From: a virus | Lineage: Duplodnaviria > Caudoviricetes | Direction: 5' to 3' (one strand) | Virus record (IMG/VR): IMGVR_UViG_3300021978_000181 | Span: 1-50,403 of that record | DNA length: 50,403 nucleotides | In this document: in pieces, positions 13,518-33,881 of the stretch | Layout of the letters: every line of letters begins with the position of its first letter | Numbering within the stretch: the first letter of the stretch is position 1 | Translations under genes and position numbers: made by a program | Notes under the pieces: model-generated | Databases searched by the model: none | What the model was told of the DNA's origin: nothing | Seen by the model: the letters and a program-made list of their open reading frames with translations, nothing else

Positions 13518-13854
13518 TCGGCACGGTTCGCAATCGGTCTGCATTACTGACTTCCTCCGCAAAAACTTTTTCCAGTGTGTGTCACCCAAGCGTCACCGTC
13601 TACCCGTTGTCGTCGCAACTGAGTTTTTCTCGTTCGCTTCGTCCGTACCCGTTGCGTCTGCGTCACGCCGAAGGCGGCGGATGGCTCATGCGTGCGTGGG
13701 CCTCCCGACACCTTCGGGTGTCCGACTGACTCGGCTGCATTGCTGCGCACCGGGTCTGTCGTAGCCCTCCTTGGGCGTTTCCTCTCTAGACTTGGGCTGC
13801 CCGGCTCACGCTTGGCAGCCCTCTTTCCCGGGGAGGATGGGGGAATAGGGGTTG

Positions 13855-24302: not shown

Positions 24303-24797
24303 ATGGCAAAGGGAAAACTTCCAGAGGAAGCAAAAGCATACGTCGTTCGGGCGCTCGCGTGCTTTACCGATGCCTCTGAAATTCTGGAGGTCATCAGGAA
24401 GGATTACGGCGTTGAGATTGCCCGGCAATCGGTTGAGACGTATGACCCCACGAAGGCTGCCGGCGCCAAGCTTTCGAAGCAGTGGCGCGATCTGTTCGAA
24501 AGAACCCGCCAAGCGTTCATTGAGGATATCGATGGGATCGGCCTCGCGCACAAGGCGGTGCGGCTGCGCACATTGGAGCGCATGCGGGCCAAGGCCGAGA
24601 AGCAAGGCAACGTCGCGCTCGTGGTGCAGATCACGGTCGAGGCCGAGAAGATCGTCGGCGAGATCTACACGAACAAGCGCCAGCTGACCGGGGCGAACGG
24701 CAAGCCCTTGTTCCCGCCGAAGCCGATCACAGACGACATGAACCCGGCTGATGCCGCCGAGGCCTATGCAGCAAGCCGAGAAGCCCTCGACAACTGA
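24303..24797 (+). CDS. terS: Terminase small subunit (DUF2280 family)
   Basis: VVRALACF...YDPTKAAGAKLSKQW...FERTR; directly upstream of terL. Confidence 0.8.
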   Translation: MAKGKLPEEAKAYVVRALACFTDASEILEVIRKDYGVEIARQSVETYDPTKAAGAKLSKQWRDLFERTRQAFIEDIDGIGLAHKAVRLRTLERMRAKAEKQGNVALVVQITVEAEKIVGEIYTNKRQLTGANGKPLFPPKPITDDMNPADAAEAYAASREALDN

Positions 24798-26424
24798 GCT
24801 GCAATGGCCGCCGAACTACATCCGGGTTTGGAAGTGGCGGCAGCAGCAACTTGAAAGGTTCGCTCGCGACCCTGCGCACGTGATCGGTGCCAAGGAGTAT
24901 TACCGCACGCGCCCGATAGAGTTCATTGGGGACTGGTGCGACACCTACGATCCGCGCAACGCTGGAGGCGATCTGCCGGCCCGGTTGCCGTTCGTGCTGT
25001 TCCCAAAGCAGCGCGAGCTCGTCACGTTCCTGATGGCCTGTCTCGACGACGAGGGGTCGGGGCTCGTCGAGAAGTGTCGAGACATGGGGGCGACGTGGCT
25101 TTGCTGCGCATTCTCGATTTGGCTGTGGCTGTTCTGGCCAGGCGTCGCCATCGGGTGGGGCTCGCGCAAAGAGCAACTTGTCGACAAGATCGGAGATCCC
25201 GACAGCATCTTTCAGAAGATGCGCGTGCTGCTCTTGGGGTTGCCGAAGGTCTTTTGGCCCGCGGGGCTCAGCCCCAAGGACCACATGACCTACATGAAGT
25301 TCATCAATCCGGAGAATGACGCGACGATCACGGGGGAGGCGGGCGACAACATCGGTCGCGGTGGCCGCAAGCGCATCTACTTCAAGGACGAAAGCGCGCA
25401 CTATGAGCGGCCGGAACTGATCGAGGCGGCGCTTTCGGAAAACACGCGGGTGCAGATCGACATCTCGTCGGTCAATGGCATCGGCAACGTGTTCCACCGT
25501 CGGCGGGAAAGCGGCGTGGAGTGGCGGCCGGGCGCGACGATCAACAAGATCGCTGCCAACGTGTTCGTCATGGACTGGCGCGACCACCCGATGAAAAACC
25601 AGGCGTGGTACGATGCGCGCCACGAGAAGTTTAAGAACGAGGGCCTGCTTCACGTCTTTGCGCAAGAGGTCGACCGCAACTATGCGGCCTCGGTTGAGGG
25701 CGTCATCATCCCGGCCGAGTGGGTGCAGTCGGCGATCGACGCGGATAAGAAGCTGCGCTTTACCGATGACGGCGCCTGGATGGCCTCGCTCGATGTTGCT
25801 GACGGCGGGCTCGACAGCAATGCGCTATCCAAGCGCAAGGGCGTGATCCTGAAATACCTTGAGGAGTGGGGCGAGGTCGACACCGGGCAGACCACGCGCC
25901 GCGCTGTTGCGGCCTGCAATGAGCCGATGACCCTGCAGTATGACTGTATCGGCGTAGGCGCCGGCGTGAAGTCCGAGGCGAACCGGCTGAAGGCGGATCC
26001 CGAGACGGCGGCCAAGGTGAAGCACATCCGCTTCGTTCCATGGAATGCGGGCGCGGCCGTGATGAACCCTGATGACCGCATCATCAAGGGCGATAGGCAG
26101 TCGCCGCTCAACAAGGACTTTTTCGGGAACTTCAAGGCTCAGGCTTGGTGGTCAGGGCGGCGTCGGTTTGAGAAGACGCACCGGGCTGTAACCGAGGGCG
26201 TCCGCTATCCCGCGCACGAACTCATCAGCCTGCCGTCCGATTTGCCGCTCCTGCACAAGCTCGTCAAAGAGCTGAGCCAGCCGACGCGAGACTATGACGG
26301 GCGGATGCGCCTGATCGTCAACAAGACACCGGAGGGCACACGGTCGCCGAACCTGGCCGACTGCGTGATCTCAAACTACTTCCCCGCAAAGGCTGGCGCA
26401 CTGCCGCTAGAGGATTGGGTGTGA
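24751..26424 (+). CDS. terL: Terminase large subunit
   Basis: Walker A-like EKCRDMGATW, Walker B YFKDESAH, nuclease LDVADGG...D...SPNLAD; start may be 24766. Confidence 0.92.
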   Translation: MPPRPMQQAEKPSTTELQWPPNYIRVWKWRQQQLERFARDPAHVIGAKEYYRTRPIEFIGDWCDTYDPRNAGGDLPARLPFVLFPKQRELVTFLMACLDDEGSGLVEKCRDMGATWLCCAFSIWLWLFWPGVAIGWGSRKEQLVDKIGDPDSIFQKMRVLLLGLPKVFWPAGLSPKDHMTYMKFINPENDATITGEAGDNIGRGGRKRIYFKDESAHYERPELIEAALSENTRVQIDISSVNGIGNVFHRRRESGVEWRPGATINKIAANVFVMDWRDHPMKNQAWYDARHEKFKNEGLLHVFAQEVDRNYAASVEGVIIPAEWVQSAIDADKKLRFTDDGAWMASLDVADGGLDSNALSKRKGVILKYLEEWGEVDTGQTTRRAVAACNEPMTLQYDCIGVGAGVKSEANRLKADPETAAKVKHIRFVPWNAGAAVMNPDDRIIKGDRQSPLNKDFFGNFKAQAWWSGRRRFEKTHRAVTEGVRYPAHELISLPSDLPLLHKLVKELSQPTRDYDGRMRLIVNKTPEGTRSPNLADCVISNYFPAKAGALPLEDWV

Positions 26425-27935
26425 TGAAGACATTCGACACGCTCACAAACCTCGTGGCCAATCTCGGCGCGGGCAACGCCAAGACGCTGGCCGACAGCTT
26501 CGGCATGCGCTCGATCTCCGACCAGGAGCTTGAGGCCATGTACCGCGGCGACTGGATTAGCCGCAAGATCGTCGACCTTCCCGTCACCGACATGCTGCGC
26601 CCATGGCGCGCGTGGCAGGCGGAAAACGAGCAGATCGAGGGGATCGAGGACGCCGAGAGGCGGCACAAGGTTCGGCAAAAGCTGGCACTCGCCAAGGCGT
26701 GGGGGCGCCTCTACGGCGGCGCAGGCATGCTCATCGGGGCCGACACGTCGTCACCCGACAAAGAGCTGCGGGTGGAGAGCATCAAGCAGGGCGGGCTGCG
26801 CTACCTTACGGTGCTGCCGCGGCGCATGCTGCAGGTCCACGATATGGACTACGACCCGGAGTCGCCGTTCTTTGGCGAGCCGCAGTATTACTCGCTCTAC
26901 ACGCGCGCCGGCACCAGCATTCGAATTCACCCCTCGCGGGTGCTGCGGTTCATCGGCGTTCCGCGACCTGACATCGACCTCAATCCAGATGGATGGGGCG
27001 ATAGCGTCCTGCAGGTCGTCTACGATGCAATCCATCATGCGGGTCTGACGTCGGGCGCCATTGCCGAGCTCGTGCATGAGGCGAAGGTCGATGTGATCCG
27101 CATGCATGAGTTGGGCGACAAGCTCGCGACGTCAGACGGAACGTCTCTCGTCACCAAGCGGTTTCAGGCCGCAAACATGCTCAAGAGCATCAACAACATG
27201 CTCTTGCTCGACAAGGAAGACGAGTGGGACAGGAAGCAGACGAGCTTCCAGGGCCTCTCCGACGTGCTGGTGAACTACCTGCAGATCGTCGCCGGCGCCG
27301 CCGACATCCCGGCAACGCGACTGCTCGGAACGGCACCGAAGGGCATGAACGCCACTGGCGACAGTGACATCCGCAACTATTACGACATGCTCGATGGGCA
27401 GCGCGAGGATACGCTGCGCCCCAAGCTGGAATTCCTTGACGAGATCCTCTGGCGCGATGCGATCGGCATGGTGCCCAAGGACGCCTATTTCACCTTCAAC
27501 CCGCTGTGGCAGATGACGGCCAAAGAGAAGGCCGACCTTGCCAAGACCAAGGCGGAGACCACGCAGATCTACGCAAACTCAGGCCTCATCCCCGATGAGC
27601 CGTTGGCGCATGGCGTGACCAACATGCTGATCGAGGACGAGACCTATCCGGGCCTTGAGGCCGAAATCGAAAAGTACCTCGCGTCGGGCGGTCCTCTGGT
27701 TCCTGAGGAGGAGGAAGTCGATCCCGATGCTGACGTTCAACCTTCCGAAGATGACCCGGAAGGGGACACGGAAGCGGTCGATCGTATTGCGCCCCATCGA
27801 TCCCTCACCGGCCCTGGATACGGATCTGCTCGTCATTCTGAACTCGCTCGTCAGATCGGTGATGAACTGGACGCGCGCAAACGTCGTGCCGGTTATCAGC
27901 GTAGAGCGGGAGGGTTTCCACGCCGAGGGGCGTGA
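26424..27935 (+). CDS. Portal protein (DUF1073 family)
   Basis: YRGDWISRKIVD, RLYGGA, IHPSR, WGDSVL, DIPATRLLG, SDIRNYYD, FNPLWQ. Confidence 0.9.
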   Translation: MKTFDTLTNLVANLGAGNAKTLADSFGMRSISDQELEAMYRGDWISRKIVDLPVTDMLRPWRAWQAENEQIEGIEDAERRHKVRQKLALAKAWGRLYGGAGMLIGADTSSPDKELRVESIKQGGLRYLTVLPRRMLQVHDMDYDPESPFFGEPQYYSLYTRAGTSIRIHPSRVLRFIGVPRPDIDLNPDGWGDSVLQVVYDAIHHAGLTSGAIAELVHEAKVDVIRMHELGDKLATSDGTSLVTKRFQAANMLKSINNMLLLDKEDEWDRKQTSFQGLSDVLVNYLQIVAGAADIPATRLLGTAPKGMNATGDSDIRNYYDMLDGQREDTLRPKLEFLDEILWRDAIGMVPKDAYFTFNPLWQMTAKEKADLAKTKAETTQIYANSGLIPDEPLAHGVTNMLIEDETYPGLEAEIEKYLASGGPLVPEEEEVDPDADVQPSEDDPEGDTEAVDRIAPHRSLTGPGYGSARHSELARQIGDELDARKRRAGYQRRAGGFPRRGA

Positions 27936-29394
27936 CGTCCCGGCTGCGATCGATGCTCAAAACATAGGATTTTCCTATGTTTCCGACGACGCCGGCGAAA
28001 ATGCCCGCGCTATCATTGAGGAACTGAGGCGGCAAGCCGAGATCGCAGCCGCCGCGGCCGAGCAGCGCGCGCGCCAGGCGCTCACGCGCGAGGCGGGGCG
28101 CCACACACAGAAGTGGGTCGCATCGATCAAGGCTGGAACGCAGATCGACGTGTCGAGGCTGCTGAGCGATGACGATCTCGTCGAGTACCTGTCGCTGCGC
28201 AGCGAGGAATTCGTCGGGCTCATCAAGAACCTCACGGAGGATATGACCTACCGGATCAACCGGGAGGTGCTGGGCTCGATATTCGAGGGCCGCTCGAATG
28301 CCGACGTCGCCAAGGCGCTGCAGGAGATCGAGGGGATCGGGCGCAACCGGGCGCGGCTCATCGCGCGCGATCAGGCCTCAAAGCACAACGCGGCAATGAA
28401 CCAGCTTCGCCAGCAACAGGCGGGCGTAACCCATTATCGCTGGGCTACGATCCTCGACGGGCGCGAGCGCGAGACGCACCGGGACAACGACGGCCGGGTG
28501 TTCAAGTGGGACGACCCGCCAACGGTTACGGGGCACCCGGGAGACGAGATCAACTGCCGGTGCAGGGCGTTGGCTGTGCTGGCAGATGAGGACAGGATAC
28601 CCGACGAGCCGGAGCTTTTGGGTGGCACCACTGAGGTCGGGCCCGTTGATCCGGTTGTTCCGCCGCTTCCTCCAAACTCTCTTGCGGAGTGGAACGGGGG
28701 CATATCTTCGAGCCTTCGCGAGGCGGCCCAATCCCGCGGGGTTACGGCTGAGGCGCTTGTCGCTCAGCTTGATGACAAGCTGGCTCGCCTGACCGAGTCT
28801 TCGGCGCCATGGATGCGGGTCGGGCCTTATGAGCTAGAGAAAATATTGTCCGAGGGTCGCCTCAGGAATCAATTCGAGACGAATACGAGCAAGGGGTTTC
28901 TTGATCGGGATTTGCGCCTTAAGCACGAGCGCGGCTACCTGGGAGCCCCCGCCAGCATGGCTCGGGCGGATCATCCAAAGTATGGGTATTTGTCGGCCGA
29001 CCCAAACGGCGTGCACGGCACTGTTGAGCACTATGGCGACATCGCCGTCCGGTTCAGGCCGTCGGTGCGTTCTCGGACGACATTTACAGGGGACGACAGT
29101 TTGTCCGGACTTGCCGACAGGTACAATCCGAGCCCGCTTAATGCTCCGTCGGTGCGGTCCCTTGCGTTGCGGCGACATGTTCCCAACCTGAATCGAAACA
29201 TCAGGGATCTTCTGGGGGCGGGGTCCGTCGACGATCTCCCTCAGGTGTTTGGTGTGCCGTATGTTGAGGCGCAGTTTTGGGGCAGCCTAAACGTCCCCGA
29301 TATTGAGGAGGTTGTGTTTCATAGGTCGCCAGCGAGGCGACTTCGGCGCCAACTGGAGACCCTTGGGATCCCGTTTAGAGTTGCCTCAGATTGA
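27727..29394 (+). CDS. MuF/SPP1-gp7 head morphogenesis protein with C-terminal DUF3626-like domain
   Basis: RARLIARDQ, W...DGRER..H, HPGDEINCRC, then NQFETNTS...YGYL...YGD...RTTFTGDDS...YVEAQ. Confidence 0.85.
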   Translation: MLTFNLPKMTRKGTRKRSIVLRPIDPSPALDTDLLVILNSLVRSVMNWTRANVVPVISVEREGFHAEGRDVPAAIDAQNIGFSYVSDDAGENARAIIEELRRQAEIAAAAAEQRARQALTREAGRHTQKWVASIKAGTQIDVSRLLSDDDLVEYLSLRSEEFVGLIKNLTEDMTYRINREVLGSIFEGRSNADVAKALQEIEGIGRNRARLIARDQASKHNAAMNQLRQQQAGVTHYRWATILDGRERETHRDNDGRVFKWDDPPTVTGHPGDEINCRCRALAVLADEDRIPDEPELLGGTTEVGPVDPVVPPLPPNSLAEWNGGISSSLREAAQSRGVTAEALVAQLDDKLARLTESSAPWMRVGPYELEKILSEGRLRNQFETNTSKGFLDRDLRLKHERGYLGAPASMARADHPKYGYLSADPNGVHGTVEHYGDIAVRFRPSVRSRTTFTGDDSLSGLADRYNPSPLNAPSVRSLALRRHVPNLNRNIRDLLGAGSVDDLPQVFGVPYVEAQFWGSLNVPDIEEVVFHRSPARRLRRQLETLGIPFRVASD

Positions 29395-29695: not shown

Positions 29696-30202
29696 ATGGG
29701 CCTTACCGCCAAATTCACCGCCGCGATCTACGCCAGGCTGACCGGGTCGCCCGACTTCGGCAACAGCAGGTTTGAATATCCGGGTCAGGCTGGCGTAGAC
29801 ATTTCGAACGGCACTGGCGACAACCAGGCCGATCTGCTGTTCGTCGACACCCGCACGATTGCCGCGTCATCCAACGATGACCTCGATCTCGCCGGCGGCT
29901 CGCTTTCTGACCCGCTCGGCAATGCGCTCACCTTCGCAACCGTCAAGGCCATTCTCGTGAAGGCTGCAGCCGGCAACACGAACGATGTTGTCGTGGGCGG
30001 CGAGGATTCCGCAGCATTCGTCGGCCCGTTTGGGGGCACGGACGAGACGATTTCCATTCCGCCGGGCGGCTCGTGCCTGCTGACTGCGCCGGTTGATGGC
30101 TGGGCCGTGACCGCTACGGCGGCCGACATTCTGCGCATCGCCAACAGCGCGGGCGGCACGGGCGTCGACTACGACATCATGATCGTGGGCACCAGCGCCT
30201 AA
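29696..30202 (+). CDS. Putative virion structural protein (beta-rich)
   Basis: RBS AAGGA; G/A/T/D-rich; NGTGDNQAD...DLDL...DPLG. Confidence 0.6.
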   Translation: MGLTAKFTAAIYARLTGSPDFGNSRFEYPGQAGVDISNGTGDNQADLLFVDTRTIAASSNDDLDLAGGSLSDPLGNALTFATVKAILVKAAAGNTNDVVVGGEDSAAFVGPFGGTDETISIPPGGSCLLTAPVDGWAVTATAADILRIANSAGGTGVDYDIMIVGTSA

Positions 30203-30475: not shown

Positions 30476-32119
30476 ATGCCCACAATCTGCGCCGAGGCGC
30501 GCCCGGAGAAAGCTCGCCGGGTGATGGTCCTGCATGCCGACGAGCAGACGCAAGAGCGCCTGCGGGTGTGGGCGACAGATCGCGGGTTCGATCTCGGCTG
30601 GAATTACGACGGATGGCCGATCGATCCGCAGTGGTTCCGCTTCCACGTCACGCTGCTCGCCACCAAGAACGAGGTCGAGATCGAGGATCGCTGGCAGCCC
30701 GTCGGGCCGGTGATGGTGAGCCCGGCGGGCTTCGCGGTGCTGGGTGCTGACCGCCGGGTGCCGGTCCTTGCCCTGGAGCAGAACGCCAAGCTGACCGCCA
30801 TGCGGCAGTTCTTCATCGAGACGTTCGGGGCCGAGCCGACATTCGACGAGTACATCCCGCATATCTCGCTTTCCTACAAATGGGACGGCGTGCCGGACCT
30901 GTCGCAGATGGAGCCGCCGCCGTTCGATCTGACGTTTGACGCCCTTGTCGTGGCGCTGCTCGACGACAAGCCGGCGAAGCCCAAAGACGCCGCCATGGAG
31001 ACCCTGCCGATGCTCTTTGCCGACACGCTGGAGATCACCGGCACGCGCCGCTCCAAGGATGGATATCTCGTCGCCGACTGCCGCGCCGCGCGCTCCGGCA
31101 TTCAGCAGTACGCCGGCGCAGAGGTAGGACGGCCGGACCTGCAGACGGTCCACGTCTATCGCCCGCCTGAGGAAGTCTTCAAGGCGGACAGCCTCGCCAG
31201 CTACGGCCACAAGCCCGTGACGCTCGATCATCCGATGGAGGGCGTCACGGCGGACAACTGGAAGCAGATCGCAGTCGGCAACGTCGGGGGTGACGTGGTG
31301 CGCGATGGGGGCTTTGTGCGCGTCCCCCTCATCGTGATGGACGCTCAAGCCATCGCCGCGGTCGAGAACGGAAAGCGCGAGCTGTCCATGGGCTACGAGT
31401 GCCGCCTCGAATTCGTCGACGGCGTGACGCCTGAGGGCGAAAGCTACCAGGCCGTGCAGCGCGACATCCGCATCAATCACGCGGCCATCGTTGAGCGCGG
31501 CCGCGCAGGTCCACAGTGCCGCATCGGGGACAAGGGCAAGCCCGATGACCGTGAGCGTCAGCCCGTCACCAAGGGAAATGACACCATGAACCTCCGCAAG
31601 ATTGTGGTGGACGGTCTGACGATCGAAACCACCGACCAGGGCATCGAGGCGATCAACAAGCTCAATGCCCAGATCGCCGACAATGACAAGGCCGTCGCCG
31701 ACGCCAAGAAGGCGCTGGAGGACGCGACCGAGGGCGTCAAGAAGCTCAAGGCGGACCACGCCAAGGAACTCGACGAACTCAAGAAGCAGATCCCGACGGC
31801 CGATCAGCTTGAGGAGATGCTCGGCAAGCGCGGCGATCTCGTGGACGCTGCCAAGAAGCTGCTGCCCGACTACGACTGCAAGGGCAAGGCAGCGGCGGAC
31901 ATCCGCAAGGCCTGTGTCGAGAAGCATCTCGGCGACGCGGCGGTAAAGGATCGCTCCGACGACTACATCGCCGCGCAGTTCGATGCGCTGGTGAGCTTCG
32001 CCGCCAACGGCAGCGGCTCGGTCGATCCGGTGCGCGATGCGCTCAAGGGTGGCGTCGTCAAGCCGAGCGACGCGCGCGCCAAGCACCTCGCCGATCAGGC
32101 AAAGGCCTGGATGGCCTAA
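30476..32119 (+). CDS. Acb1-like 2H phosphodiesterase fused to DUF2213 prohead protease/scaffold
   Basis: FHVTL (H57) and DEYIPHISLSY (H129); DUF2213 ARSGIQQY, PVTLDHP, ELSMGY, INHAAIVERGRAG; coiled-coil scaffold tail. Confidence 0.85.
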   Translation: MPTICAEARPEKARRVMVLHADEQTQERLRVWATDRGFDLGWNYDGWPIDPQWFRFHVTLLATKNEVEIEDRWQPVGPVMVSPAGFAVLGADRRVPVLALEQNAKLTAMRQFFIETFGAEPTFDEYIPHISLSYKWDGVPDLSQMEPPPFDLTFDALVVALLDDKPAKPKDAAMETLPMLFADTLEITGTRRSKDGYLVADCRAARSGIQQYAGAEVGRPDLQTVHVYRPPEEVFKADSLASYGHKPVTLDHPMEGVTADNWKQIAVGNVGGDVVRDGGFVRVPLIVMDAQAIAAVENGKRELSMGYECRLEFVDGVTPEGESYQAVQRDIRINHAAIVERGRAGPQCRIGDKGKPDDRERQPVTKGNDTMNLRKIVVDGLTIETTDQGIEAINKLNAQIADNDKAVADAKKALEDATEGVKKLKADHAKELDELKKQIPTADQLEEMLGKRGDLVDAAKKLLPDYDCKGKAAADIRKACVEKHLGDAAVKDRSDDYIAAQFDALVSFAANGSGSVDPVRDALKGGVVKPSDARAKHLADQAKAWMA

Positions 32120-32164: not shown

Positions 32165-32884
32165 ATGAGCGTTCAGCCCAATTACAACGCGACCCTCGAC
32201 GAAGGCTATGAGGGGCAGATCGCCGACACGCGCCTTTCGGACGTCGTGTCCCGCGTCTGCGAGCCGGCCTCGATCGGGTTCGGCAAGGCCGTGATCCGCG
32301 GCACCGATCCCAAGCAGGTCAAGCTCGGTGCCGCCGGCGAGTTCATCGGCATCACCGTGCGCGACATCGCGCTGCCCGCCGCCAACTCCGACGTCTACAC
32401 GCAGTATGACAACGTGGGCGTCATGGTGAAGGGCTCGATGTTCGTGACCGCTGCTGCTGCGGTGACGTTCGGCGACCCCGTGTACCGCACGCCCACCGGC
32501 ACGCTCACCAACGTTCCCGGCACGCGCACCGCCACGTTCGGCACGCCCGTCGGTGACGGCAACGGCACGCTGAGCGCCATCGTCGTCGACGCCACCACGC
32601 CGCCGAAGGCCGGCACCTACACGGTGCACTTCTTCGAGGCCGAAACCGACCTCGGCGACTTCGAGGTCATCCGCGACGCCGATGGTGCTGTGGTCGGCGT
32701 CGGCAAGGTCGGCACCGCCTTCGACAACGGCGGCCTCGGCTTCACCATCGGCGACAGCTCCACCGATTGGGCGCTCGGGACCACCATCCCGATCACCGTC
32801 GTGGGGGGCAACACGCTGATCGAGGGCGCTACCTGGGAGCAGTCTGCCTCTCAGAACGCCATCGCCAAGATCCGCCTCAACTAA
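32165..32884 (+). CDS. Head decoration/cement protein with inserted domain
   Basis: IGFGKAV...GITVR...VGVMVKGSMFV...GDPVY; directly upstream of the capsid gene. Confidence 0.75.
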   Translation: MSVQPNYNATLDEGYEGQIADTRLSDVVSRVCEPASIGFGKAVIRGTDPKQVKLGAAGEFIGITVRDIALPAANSDVYTQYDNVGVMVKGSMFVTAAAAVTFGDPVYRTPTGTLTNVPGTRTATFGTPVGDGNGTLSAIVVDATTPPKAGTYTVHFFEAETDLGDFEVIRDADGAVVGVGKVGTAFDNGGLGFTIGDSSTDWALGTTIPITVVGGNTLIEGATWEQSASQNAIAKIRLN

Positions 32885-32930: not shown

Positions 32931-33881
32931 ATGCTGAATAACCAGCAGCTCAACGACGCTCAGGCGGCTTTGGGCTTTCTCATCTCCCAGACCGCGCACA
33001 TCGAGAGCCAGGTCTGGGAAAAGAAGTATCCCGACATCACCTACCCGCAGTTCGTGCCGGTCGACAACTCGGCGCACCCGTGGGCGAAGTCGGTCACGTA
33101 CTATTCGAGCGACAAGGCCGGCAAGGCGGACCTGCTGCACCACCGCGGCCAGGACTTCCCGCTGGTCAGCGTCAATCGGACCAAGCACGAGACCGAGGTC
33201 ACGATGGGTGGCATCGGTTACGACTACGACCTTGAGGAGATCAACCAGGCGCGCATGCTTGGCATCAACCTCACGGCCGATGAGGCATCGGCTGCTCGCC
33301 GCGCCTACGAGGAGTATTGCGAGCAGGTCGCCTACACGGGCGACGATCGCGTCGGGTTCACCGGTCTGCTCAACAACGCCTCGGTCTCGGCCGCCTCCGT
33401 GGCCGATCCTGACGATGAGGGCGTCGACACGACCTGGGAAACCAAGTCGGCAGACTACATCCTCACCGACATCAACGCCGCGATCACCGGCATCTGGACG
33501 GCATCCAAGACAGTCGAGCTTTCCGACACGATCTTGCTGCCGCTCACCTCGCTGGCGCTGATCAACAACAAGCGGCTCGACACGTCGCTTGAGACGACGG
33601 TGCTGGATTACGTGAAGCGCACCAACATCTACACGATGCAGACGGGGCAGCCGATCAAGATCATGGGCCTGCGTCAGCTGGAGACGGCCGGCGAGAGCAG
33701 CGCCAAGCGCATGGTCACCTACAAGCGCGACCCGGAAGTCGTGAAGATGCACATTCCGAAGCCGCTGGAGTTCCTGCCGCCGCAGCAGCAGCTCCTGCGC
33801 TTCATCGTGCCGGGCATTTTCCGTCTCGGCGGCGTCGACATCCGCCGCCCGGGCGCCGTTCGCTACTCCGACGGCATCTAA
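32931..33881 (+). CDS. Major capsid protein (DUF2184 family)
   Basis: FLISQTAHIE...Y...GLLN...RMVTY...GGVDIRRP. Confidence 0.9.
   Translation: MLNNQQLNDAQAALGFLISQTAHIESQVWEKKYPDITYPQFVPVDNSAHPWAKSVTYYSSDKAGKADLLHHRGQDFPLVSVNRTKHETEVTMGGIGYDYDLEEINQARMLGINLTADEASAARRAYEEYCEQVAYTGDDRVGFTGLLNNASVSAASVADPDDEGVDTTWETKSADYILTDINAAITGIWTASKTVELSDTILLPLTSLALINNKRLDTSLETTVLDYVKRTNIYTMQTGQPIKIMGLRQLETAGESSAKRMVTYKRDPEVVKMHIPKPLEFLPPQQQLLRFIVPGIFRLGGVDIRRPGAVRYSDGI

Follow-up and report, generated by a model that had tools for sequence, protein, structure and literature searches.

Why would a phage build a relative of an immune-signal-degrading enzyme into its own head-assembly machinery? The question is raised by one gene of IMGVR_UViG_3300021978_000181, an entire provirus record of IMG/VR, 50,403 bp long, which is referred to here as the window. 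The open reading frame (ORF) at 30476..32119 on the + strand encodes a protein of 547 aa with three modules, namely an Acb1-like 2H phosphoesterase domain, a protease-like DUF2213 domain and a helical scaffold tail, assigned with Pfam and PHROG. Judged by comparison of sequences, the fusion of the 2H domain to the DUF2213 protein is real, conserved and recurrent.

The first module occupies aa 1-164 (30476..30967, +), or more exactly about aa 9-164 with a folded core of about aa 13-161, as delimited by Pfam, a family profile, hhalign, AlphaFold2 (AF2) and Foldseek. The first catalytic motif, F-H57-V-T, lies at 30641..30652 (+; H57 codon 30644-30646), and the second, P-H129-I-S-L-S-Y, at 30857..30877 (+; H129 codon 30860-30862), where it sits inside GAEPTFDEYIPHISLSY. 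Taken alone, aa 1-177 matched the Pfam Acb1 family PF23474 with an E-value of 6.3e-6 (26.4 bits, falling to 23.0 bits when the domain is scored inside the full-length protein), and 2_5_RNA_ligase2 with 4.6e-5; the match of the N-domain to PHROG 755 had an E-value of 3.9e-8. A phmmer search of 1.84 billion proteins returned 229 representative relatives at E<=0.001, 135 of them at E<=1e-10, mostly stand-alone proteins of 145-180 aa. Alignment A3 combines the window's N-domain with 114 of these stand-alone relatives. Of its 115 sequences, 110 match PF23474 at E<=0.001 (an E-value criterion, not the gathering cut-off) and 30 match PF13563. Searched against the PDB, the A3 profile found two Acb1 entries, that of phage FBB1 (7t26, E 3.8e-10) and another under 9q2g (E 5.8e-7), and hhalign aligned it with T4 gp57B over 120 columns at 97.5% probability (E 5.7e-12). 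In the latter alignment FHVT pairs with IHST and PHISLSY with PHITLSY, and the PHITLSY of FBB1 Acb1 also aligns with the window's PHISLSY. Both histidines are invariant in all 18 rows of alignment A1; across the 115 rows of A3, H129 is invariant and H57 nearly so.

The predicted structure leads to the same relatives. The AF2 model of the N-domain, built on A3, reached a predicted local distance difference test score (pLDDT) of 92.5 and a predicted template modelling score of 0.84. Foldseek returned seven PDB matches at E<=0.001, every one of them a 2H enzyme, in the order Acb1 (7t26, 7t27), the phosphodiesterase of Burkholderia phage BCSR5 (three chains), Escherichia coli LigT and a plant cyclic phosphodiesterase; for 7t26 and 7t27 the template modelling (TM) score, normalised to the target, was 0.72. 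Among the predicted viral structures of BFVD there were 29 matches at E<=0.001, and the named top ones are annotated as Acb1. Given the profile matches to the PDB and T4 gp57B and the fold matches of the model, we regard it as established, by fold and homology, that the N-domain belongs to the Acb1 family of the 2H phosphoesterase superfamily. By sequence and modelled fold, its nearest characterised relatives are the Acb1 proteins, and in view of the family matches of the N-domain alone the two histidine motifs are no chance pattern. Hydrolysis of cyclic oligonucleotides would be the expected activity, and these signals the presumed substrate. A preliminary description made from the DNA letters had proposed two HxT/S motifs at H57 and H129, a 2H phosphoesterase akin to Acb1 and an in-frame, complete DUF2213 domain; all three proposals held, with the Acb1 structures ranking ahead of LigT.

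The second module is a beta-rich DUF2213 domain (aa 185-345, 31028..31510, +), a putative head maturation protease. Pfam DUF2213 matched aa 192-353 over profile positions 3-167 of 167 (E 4.9e-57), and PHROG 530, 'head maturation protease', matched aa 177-545 (E 4.9e-106). H252 (31229), S304 (31385) and H335 (31478), which are invariant in 41 sequences, may form a catalytic triad. Comparison of the domain with T4 gp21 (5jbl) by Foldseek gave a weak match (E 0.014, probability 0.89, TM 0.39), and alignment of the DUF2213 profile A4 with T4 gp21 by hhalign gave no support (0.28%). A solved homologue, 9b40_G (E 1.8e-18), and gp5 of phage Pam3 are labelled scaffold proteins by their depositors. The putative protease status of DUF2213 is drawn from the PHROG name, the invariant His, Ser and His, and the weak fold match.

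Fourteen further proteins of 536-558 aa share the domain order of the window, and their N-domains are 52-81% identical to the window's. Among the best 120 listed of 1,652 DUF2213 relatives at E<=1e-10, an N-terminal 2H domain was found in 25 with our own hidden Markov model. On a FastTree phylogeny of the protease-like domain (127 rows) these N-terminal fusions are scattered, with seven state changes, at least two of which are forced by well-supported branches. Such scatter implies repeated gain or loss, or else some miscalled starts among the unfused rows. Three proteins (P0035, P0040 and P0048) show a second architecture, in which the 2H domain is inserted between protease and scaffold, and they form a separate clade with a support of 99. 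The catalytic motifs are intact in 31 of 33 fusion proteins and in all six loci in which the window architecture was found as a single ORF (L001 and L064-L068), and the histidine motifs are retained across 30-80% sequence divergence. The taxonomic range is read from the source names of protein matches, which include Hyphomicrobium for a fusion and Sinorhizobium, Brevundimonas, Phenylobacterium, Methylocystis and Pseudomonas for unfused forms. Two scans of genome contigs found no relative, and tblastn of the N-domain against cultured phages returned seven records, all of them stand-alone genes with no protease fusion among them.

How many products does the gene encode? The full-length AF2 model (pLDDT 74.5) contains three folded parts separated by low-confidence linkers at aa 165-184 and 350-373. 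The first of these (30968..31027, +; pLDDT below 50) is a flexible connection between the 2H and protease-like domains and includes a stretch, K-x-K-D-A-A, that is semi-conserved in the alignments. The third part, with strands at 374-385 and helices at 387-546, corresponds to a nested in-frame scaffold gene running from M371 to A547 (31586..32119, +), a beta hairpin followed by long helices, as delimited by A1, AF2 and PHROG 530. At the end of the second linker, just before the conserved opening of the scaffold, a methionine is present in 15/15 fusion rows of A1. In the window the corresponding ATG 31586 follows the Shine-Dalgarno-like motif AAGGGA (31571..31576, +), 9 nt upstream, and the relatives have an equivalent: all six DNA loci that reach this region carry the scaffold ATG with AAGGGA, GGAG or AAGGA located 8-10 nt upstream. 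In these loci the residues around the scaffold ATG are not conserved, unlike the ATG and the motif, and this retention of a start codon and ribosome-binding motif amid non-conserved residues is the hallmark of a scaffold gene nested in a longer one. The scaffold is thus probably also made separately, as a predicted product starting at ATG 31586, and the gene likely yields two products, the full 2H-protease-scaffold protein and the scaffold alone. In both fusion architectures the nested start comes after the 2H domain, which would therefore be confined to the long product. A candidate protease-only start at ATG 31010 (M179), which follows GGAG at 30997-31000 (together 30997..31012, +), was rejected as a conserved start, since the aligned codon is ATG in three of seven loci and the Shine-Dalgarno-like motif occurs in the window only. 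According to the preliminary description, nested starts could yield a fusion, a protease-only form and a scaffold; the motifs it named before both ATGs are present, its scaffold start gained support from the relatives, and its protease-only start did not.

The same domain is carried by other head proteins. With the two 2H motifs as seeds, searches of viral and metagenome contigs yielded 130 loci, or 103 after removal of identical 2H-bearing ORFs; one of these, L069, is an end-cut copy of L006 that the identity filter missed. The 103 loci comprise 6 with the window architecture, 21 in which the 2H domain forms the C-terminus of the portal protein, and 76 other contexts, mostly small stand-alone genes. 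All 21 portal-fusion loci share a module of terminase, portal, MuF, DUF2213 protease/scaffold, cement and capsid genes. Wherever both portal and protease ORFs were present (25/25 loci), there was exactly one copy of the 2H domain, on one or the other, and the HxT...HxS/T signature was intact in 24/24 portal-fused ORFs, counted before duplicate removal. Likewise, the portal of the window lacks the domain, and the entire 50.4-kb record contains a single 2H match. This alternation between portal and protease, as read from the gene sequences, points to a capsid-interior cargo slot more than to a protease-specific link.

A 2H domain (PHROG 755, E 5.8e-24) is also the C-terminal end of a portal from another family, phrog_113, and two longer proteins, composed of a 2H domain and then an acidic helical tail, are encoded immediately upstream of a third portal type, phrog_12. 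The domain is thus associated with head genes in several types of head module that are unrelated to one another. In L060 (4495-6606), L022 (5728-7008) and L024 (1164-2135), the 2H domain ends the phrog_113 portal or heads long acidic helical proteins. Many of the long 2H proteins (P0030, P0032, P0034, P0050 and similar) have a conserved MLST(I/L)xAAP-like N-terminus, and repeated basic K-S-x-R-R-P motifs between their acidic helical segments could mark sites of processing or act as targeting signals. When ten other long 2H proteins were scanned with Pfam and PHROG, no family was assigned to their acidic helical tails.

In cultured phages, features annotated as 'portal protein' carry the portal-type 2H domain in phages of Synechococcus, Pseudomonas syringae (phiPSA1, MR15) and Rhizobium (RHEph04-06 and others), as well as Sinorhizobium (HMSP1-Susan), Aminobacter and Pseudanabaena (Pam3). 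A tblastn search started from this portal-type domain reaches gene 57B of phage T4T (E 6e-5). In the Pam3 portal sequence deposited as 8hds, residues 502-590, with LHVT and SHISLS, match the A3 profile (E 6.3e-5). At the DNA level (L133, 2272-4137), an Acb1-like 2H end with both histidine motifs makes up residues ~480-621 of this portal. In the main text of the Pam3 structure paper, as distinct from its supporting information, the 2H domain is not mentioned and the word 'phosphoesterase' occurs 0 times. In T4T (L132), gene 57B (acb1, 490-948) lies directly upstream of ipI (1022-1309), which encodes a packaged internal head protein; this adjacency may echo the head association, or is perhaps a coincidence.

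What, then, does the enzyme do in the head? Portal C-terminus, protease N-terminus and protease-scaffold junction would all place it inside the assembling head, and for this reason we favour a reading that we hold to be, on balance, the probable one: the gene encodes a three-part head-assembly polyprotein whose phosphodiesterase is capsid-interior cargo that hydrolyses cyclic-oligonucleotide immune signals, possibly after being freed by cleavage in a linker. In the proposed polyprotein, the 2H domain (aa ~9-164), a flexible linker, the DUF2213 domain (aa ~185-345), a second linker and the helical scaffold (aa ~374-547) would follow one another in a single chain. The long product shares the scaffold domain with the short one, and it should on that account co-assemble into the procapsid and carry the 2H domain along. 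Maturation cleavage in the flexible linker would then free a globular enzyme of about 18 kDa, which would hydrolyse the signals of the cyclic-oligonucleotide-based anti-phage signalling system (CBASS) and possibly those of other systems. Its place of action might be the producing cell, ahead of assembly, or the next cell, once it has been ejected along with the DNA, or both. Capsid incorporation, cleavage and ejection are steps that we infer, and of the two places of action the next cell, reached by ejection, is the bolder proposal. An extended version, according to which Acb1-type phosphodiesterases are widespread internal head proteins that are fused to any core component, cut loose by the maturation protease and ejected with the DNA, is offered tentatively, as something we would doubt more readily than accept. 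If true, it would mean that the phage is armed before any phage gene is expressed against CBASS, and possibly against type III CRISPR or Thoeris signals.

Several points weigh against the cargo reading. The N-domain is a near miss in Pfam, falling 0.6 bit short of the curated gathering cut-off of PF23474 (27 bits). Among the best 120 listed DUF2213 relatives, 95 have no N-terminal 2H domain, some of them possibly through miscalled starts. The contig loci were found through their 2H motifs, and are for this reason uninformative on how common the domain is in head modules of this kind. The portal stays with the virion, so a portal-fused 2H domain would be ejected only if it were cleaved off; the portal fusions thus support an interior location but not necessarily injection. 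Finally, CBASS is reported to fire late, which suits an enzyme working in the producing cell no less than an injected one. According to the Hobbs & Kranzusch 2026 preprint, prohead proteases cleave the activation loop of the CD-NTase (the CBASS nucleotidyltransferase) and so activate CBASS late, so that fusion protein in the cytoplasm could be important to the phage while still in the producing cell.

A rival explanation, compatible with cargo, holds that the prohead protease is itself a CBASS trigger and that the phosphodiesterase was joined to it for this reason, so that the fusion supplies every molecule of the trigger with an antidote in cis in the late infected cell and encapsidation is incidental. 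As the principal explanation we consider it unlikely, though it deserves attention. The premise of the preliminary description, that prohead proteases can trigger CBASS, is now in print: the same preprint also describes T4 as needing acb1/acb2 to mask protease-triggered CBASS, and another links virion-assembly proteins, including the prohead protease, to evasion of type I CBASS (Richmond-Buccola et al. 2023 preprint). Both fusion architectures, moreover, put the 2H domain in the protease-bearing product and outside the nested scaffold product. Yet an intact 2H domain resides on the portal, and not on the protease, in 21 distinct sister loci and many cultured phages, and it recurs in a second family of portals as well as in long proteins beside a third portal type. 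The link is thus not protease-specific, and the common denominator is the capsid interior or the head-gene cluster. The lack of support for a protease-only product from 31010 and the putative nature of the DUF2213 protease, given the poor agreement with T4 gp21 in both comparisons, also speak against an antidote tied to the protease. Of the connection proposed in the preliminary description, the physical part, an enzyme joined in frame to a head-assembly protein, stands, and the part that made the tie specific to the protease as a trigger is weakened by the portal-fused sister modules.

The 2H domain might instead act on RNA, either as a 2',3'-cyclic phosphodiesterase that heals ends cut by the host's anticodon nucleases or as a Usb1-like RNase directed against host RNA. 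An RNase is one of two options given for MuF- and portal-fused 2H domains in the text of Iyer et al. 2017 (PMC5512222). LigT and the plant cyclic phosphodiesterase are the next enzymes in fold (5ldm, E 3.8e-4; 1jh6, E 8.7e-4), the 2_5_RNA_ligase2 match was noted above, and PHROG 755 and many GenBank records bear the name 'RNA ligase'. Against these stands the closer kinship to Acb1 than to LigT in both sequence profile and fold. The text of PMC5512222 also states that such 2H versions never associate with RNA ligases, and in a scan that covered the head module no RNA ligase homologue was noticed. We therefore consider action on RNA improbable. Still harder to credit is a purely architectural role, with the 2H domain enzymatically meaningless and serving, for example, to keep the protease inactive as a pro-domain or to fill the procapsid core. 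It is true that in these fusions the domain is always attached to assembly proteins, and that its catalysis is predicted. A filler or pro-domain sits poorly, however, with histidine motifs that survive the divergence described above in all 24 portal fusions, all six protease-fusion loci and 31 of the 33 fusion proteins, or with the abundance of close stand-alone homologues of 150-180 aa.

The cargo reading can be set beside several known systems. Acb1, as represented by T4 gp57B, the FBB1 enzyme (7T26/7T27) and the BCSR5 phosphodiesterase (9Q2G/9Q2Y), has the 2H fold and the aligned HxT/S motifs in common with the window's domain, and hydrolysis of 3'-5' cyclic oligonucleotide signals would be the expected shared chemistry. 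A literature search for the BCSR5 phosphodiesterase found nothing. The difference lies in the setting: Acb1 is free-standing and about 145-165 aa long (152 aa for T4 57B), whereas in the window the domain opens a head-assembly protein of 547 aa encoded in the late structural operon. In T4, head targeting employs a short capsid-targeting peptide that is cleaved by gp21. The internal head proteins of T4 and Alt, as anti-defence or host-modifying proteins in the head, offer a proposed analogy only, and in the window targeting would instead be achieved by covalent fusion to the protease-scaffold. Nested protease/scaffold genes are familiar from lambda C/Nu3 and Mu I/Z, and T4 gene 21 has an annotated internal start (gp21'), comparable to the nested start of the window. 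In such genes, and by prediction in the window, a long protease-bearing product accompanies a short C-terminal one, and the long form is directed to the procapsid by the C-terminal part that both contain; the window differs in that its long product bears an extra enzymatic domain unrelated to assembly.

Closest of all are the 2H domains fused to MuF or portal proteins, which Iyer et al. 2017 predicted to be packaged effectors that may degrade defence-related nucleotide signals (PMC5512222, from its text, which also describes Alt as a capsid-packaged T4 protein). Together with the Pam3 portal (gp3, 8HDS), these place the same domain family on a capsid-interior protein of the same module type; the window's attachment point is instead the N-terminus of the protease/scaffold, and that of the other clade lies between protease and scaffold. 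By its predicted domain content, the window's gene likewise links an effector domain, in one polypeptide, to a head protein of the capsid interior. In the running text of that paper, apart from its figures and FTP supplement, 'DUF2213' occurs 0 times and 'prohead' in the reference list only.

The surroundings of the gene conform to a standard head module, in the order large terminase (24751-26424), portal of the Phage_portal_3 family (26415..27935, +), MuF-like minor head protein with a C-terminal DUF3626 domain (27655..29394, +), small ORFs, the fusion gene, a cement protein of the E217 gp24 / Pam3 gp6 type (32165..32884, +) and the major capsid protein (32931..33881, +). The fusion gene thus lies between the portal and MuF genes and the major capsid gene, a synteny shared by L001, L064-L066 and Pam3. 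Between the MuF and fusion genes, a 168-aa protein (29696-30202, +) belongs to PHROG 22694, a family of unknown function. In L004, L016 and L045 this family is found downstream of the capsid gene, and the change of position marks it as a mobile member of the head module. In the MuF-like protein, Phage_Mu_F (aa 201-305) is followed by a C-terminal extension of ~250 aa that matches DUF3626 (27.1 bits in Pfam, against a cut-off of 27; its Atlas neighbours are DUF3626 clusters) and PHROG 8314. A search of the PDB gave no sequence match for this domain. The extension may represent a second domain, of unknown function, that this head module loads into the capsid as cargo. Elsewhere in the window, 13757-13836 (+) matches the suhB/mmgR small RNA family of Rfam (RF00519; 50.2 bits, with a gathering score of 41). 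This family is alphaproteobacterial, and its presence would fit the likely host range, or may mark a host flank or a phage-borne copy.

Acb1 itself is already known, and 2H-portal and 2H-MuF fusions were predicted computationally in 2017. For fusions of Acb1 relatives to head proteins, the literature search found only Iyer et al. 2017 (PMC5512222), which concerns 2H-portal and 2H-MuF proteins. In a search of article texts that did not extend to figures, supplements and subscription papers, there was no account of 2H attachment to a DUF2213 protease/scaffold in two positions, of its mutual exclusivity with portal fusion, of explicit Acb1 homology of head-borne 2H domains, or of a conserved nested scaffold start. 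The occurrence of portal-fused versions in cultured phages, among them phiPSA1, RHEph04-06, HMSP1-Susan and Pam3 with its solved virion, makes the question directly testable.

To conclude, our work describes an Acb1 relative built into the head-assembly machinery as a design that recurs, with points of attachment that can be exchanged and a single copy in each head module. To our knowledge, anti-CBASS enzymes have so far been described as soluble and separately encoded. If the enzyme is packaged, a signal-degrading activity could be delivered together with the DNA, and the timing of CBASS and other cyclic-nucleotide defences would have to be rethought. If it is active in the producing cell, the fusion to a protease-like protein would amount to a natural experiment on how a protease, as newly reported, triggers CBASS.

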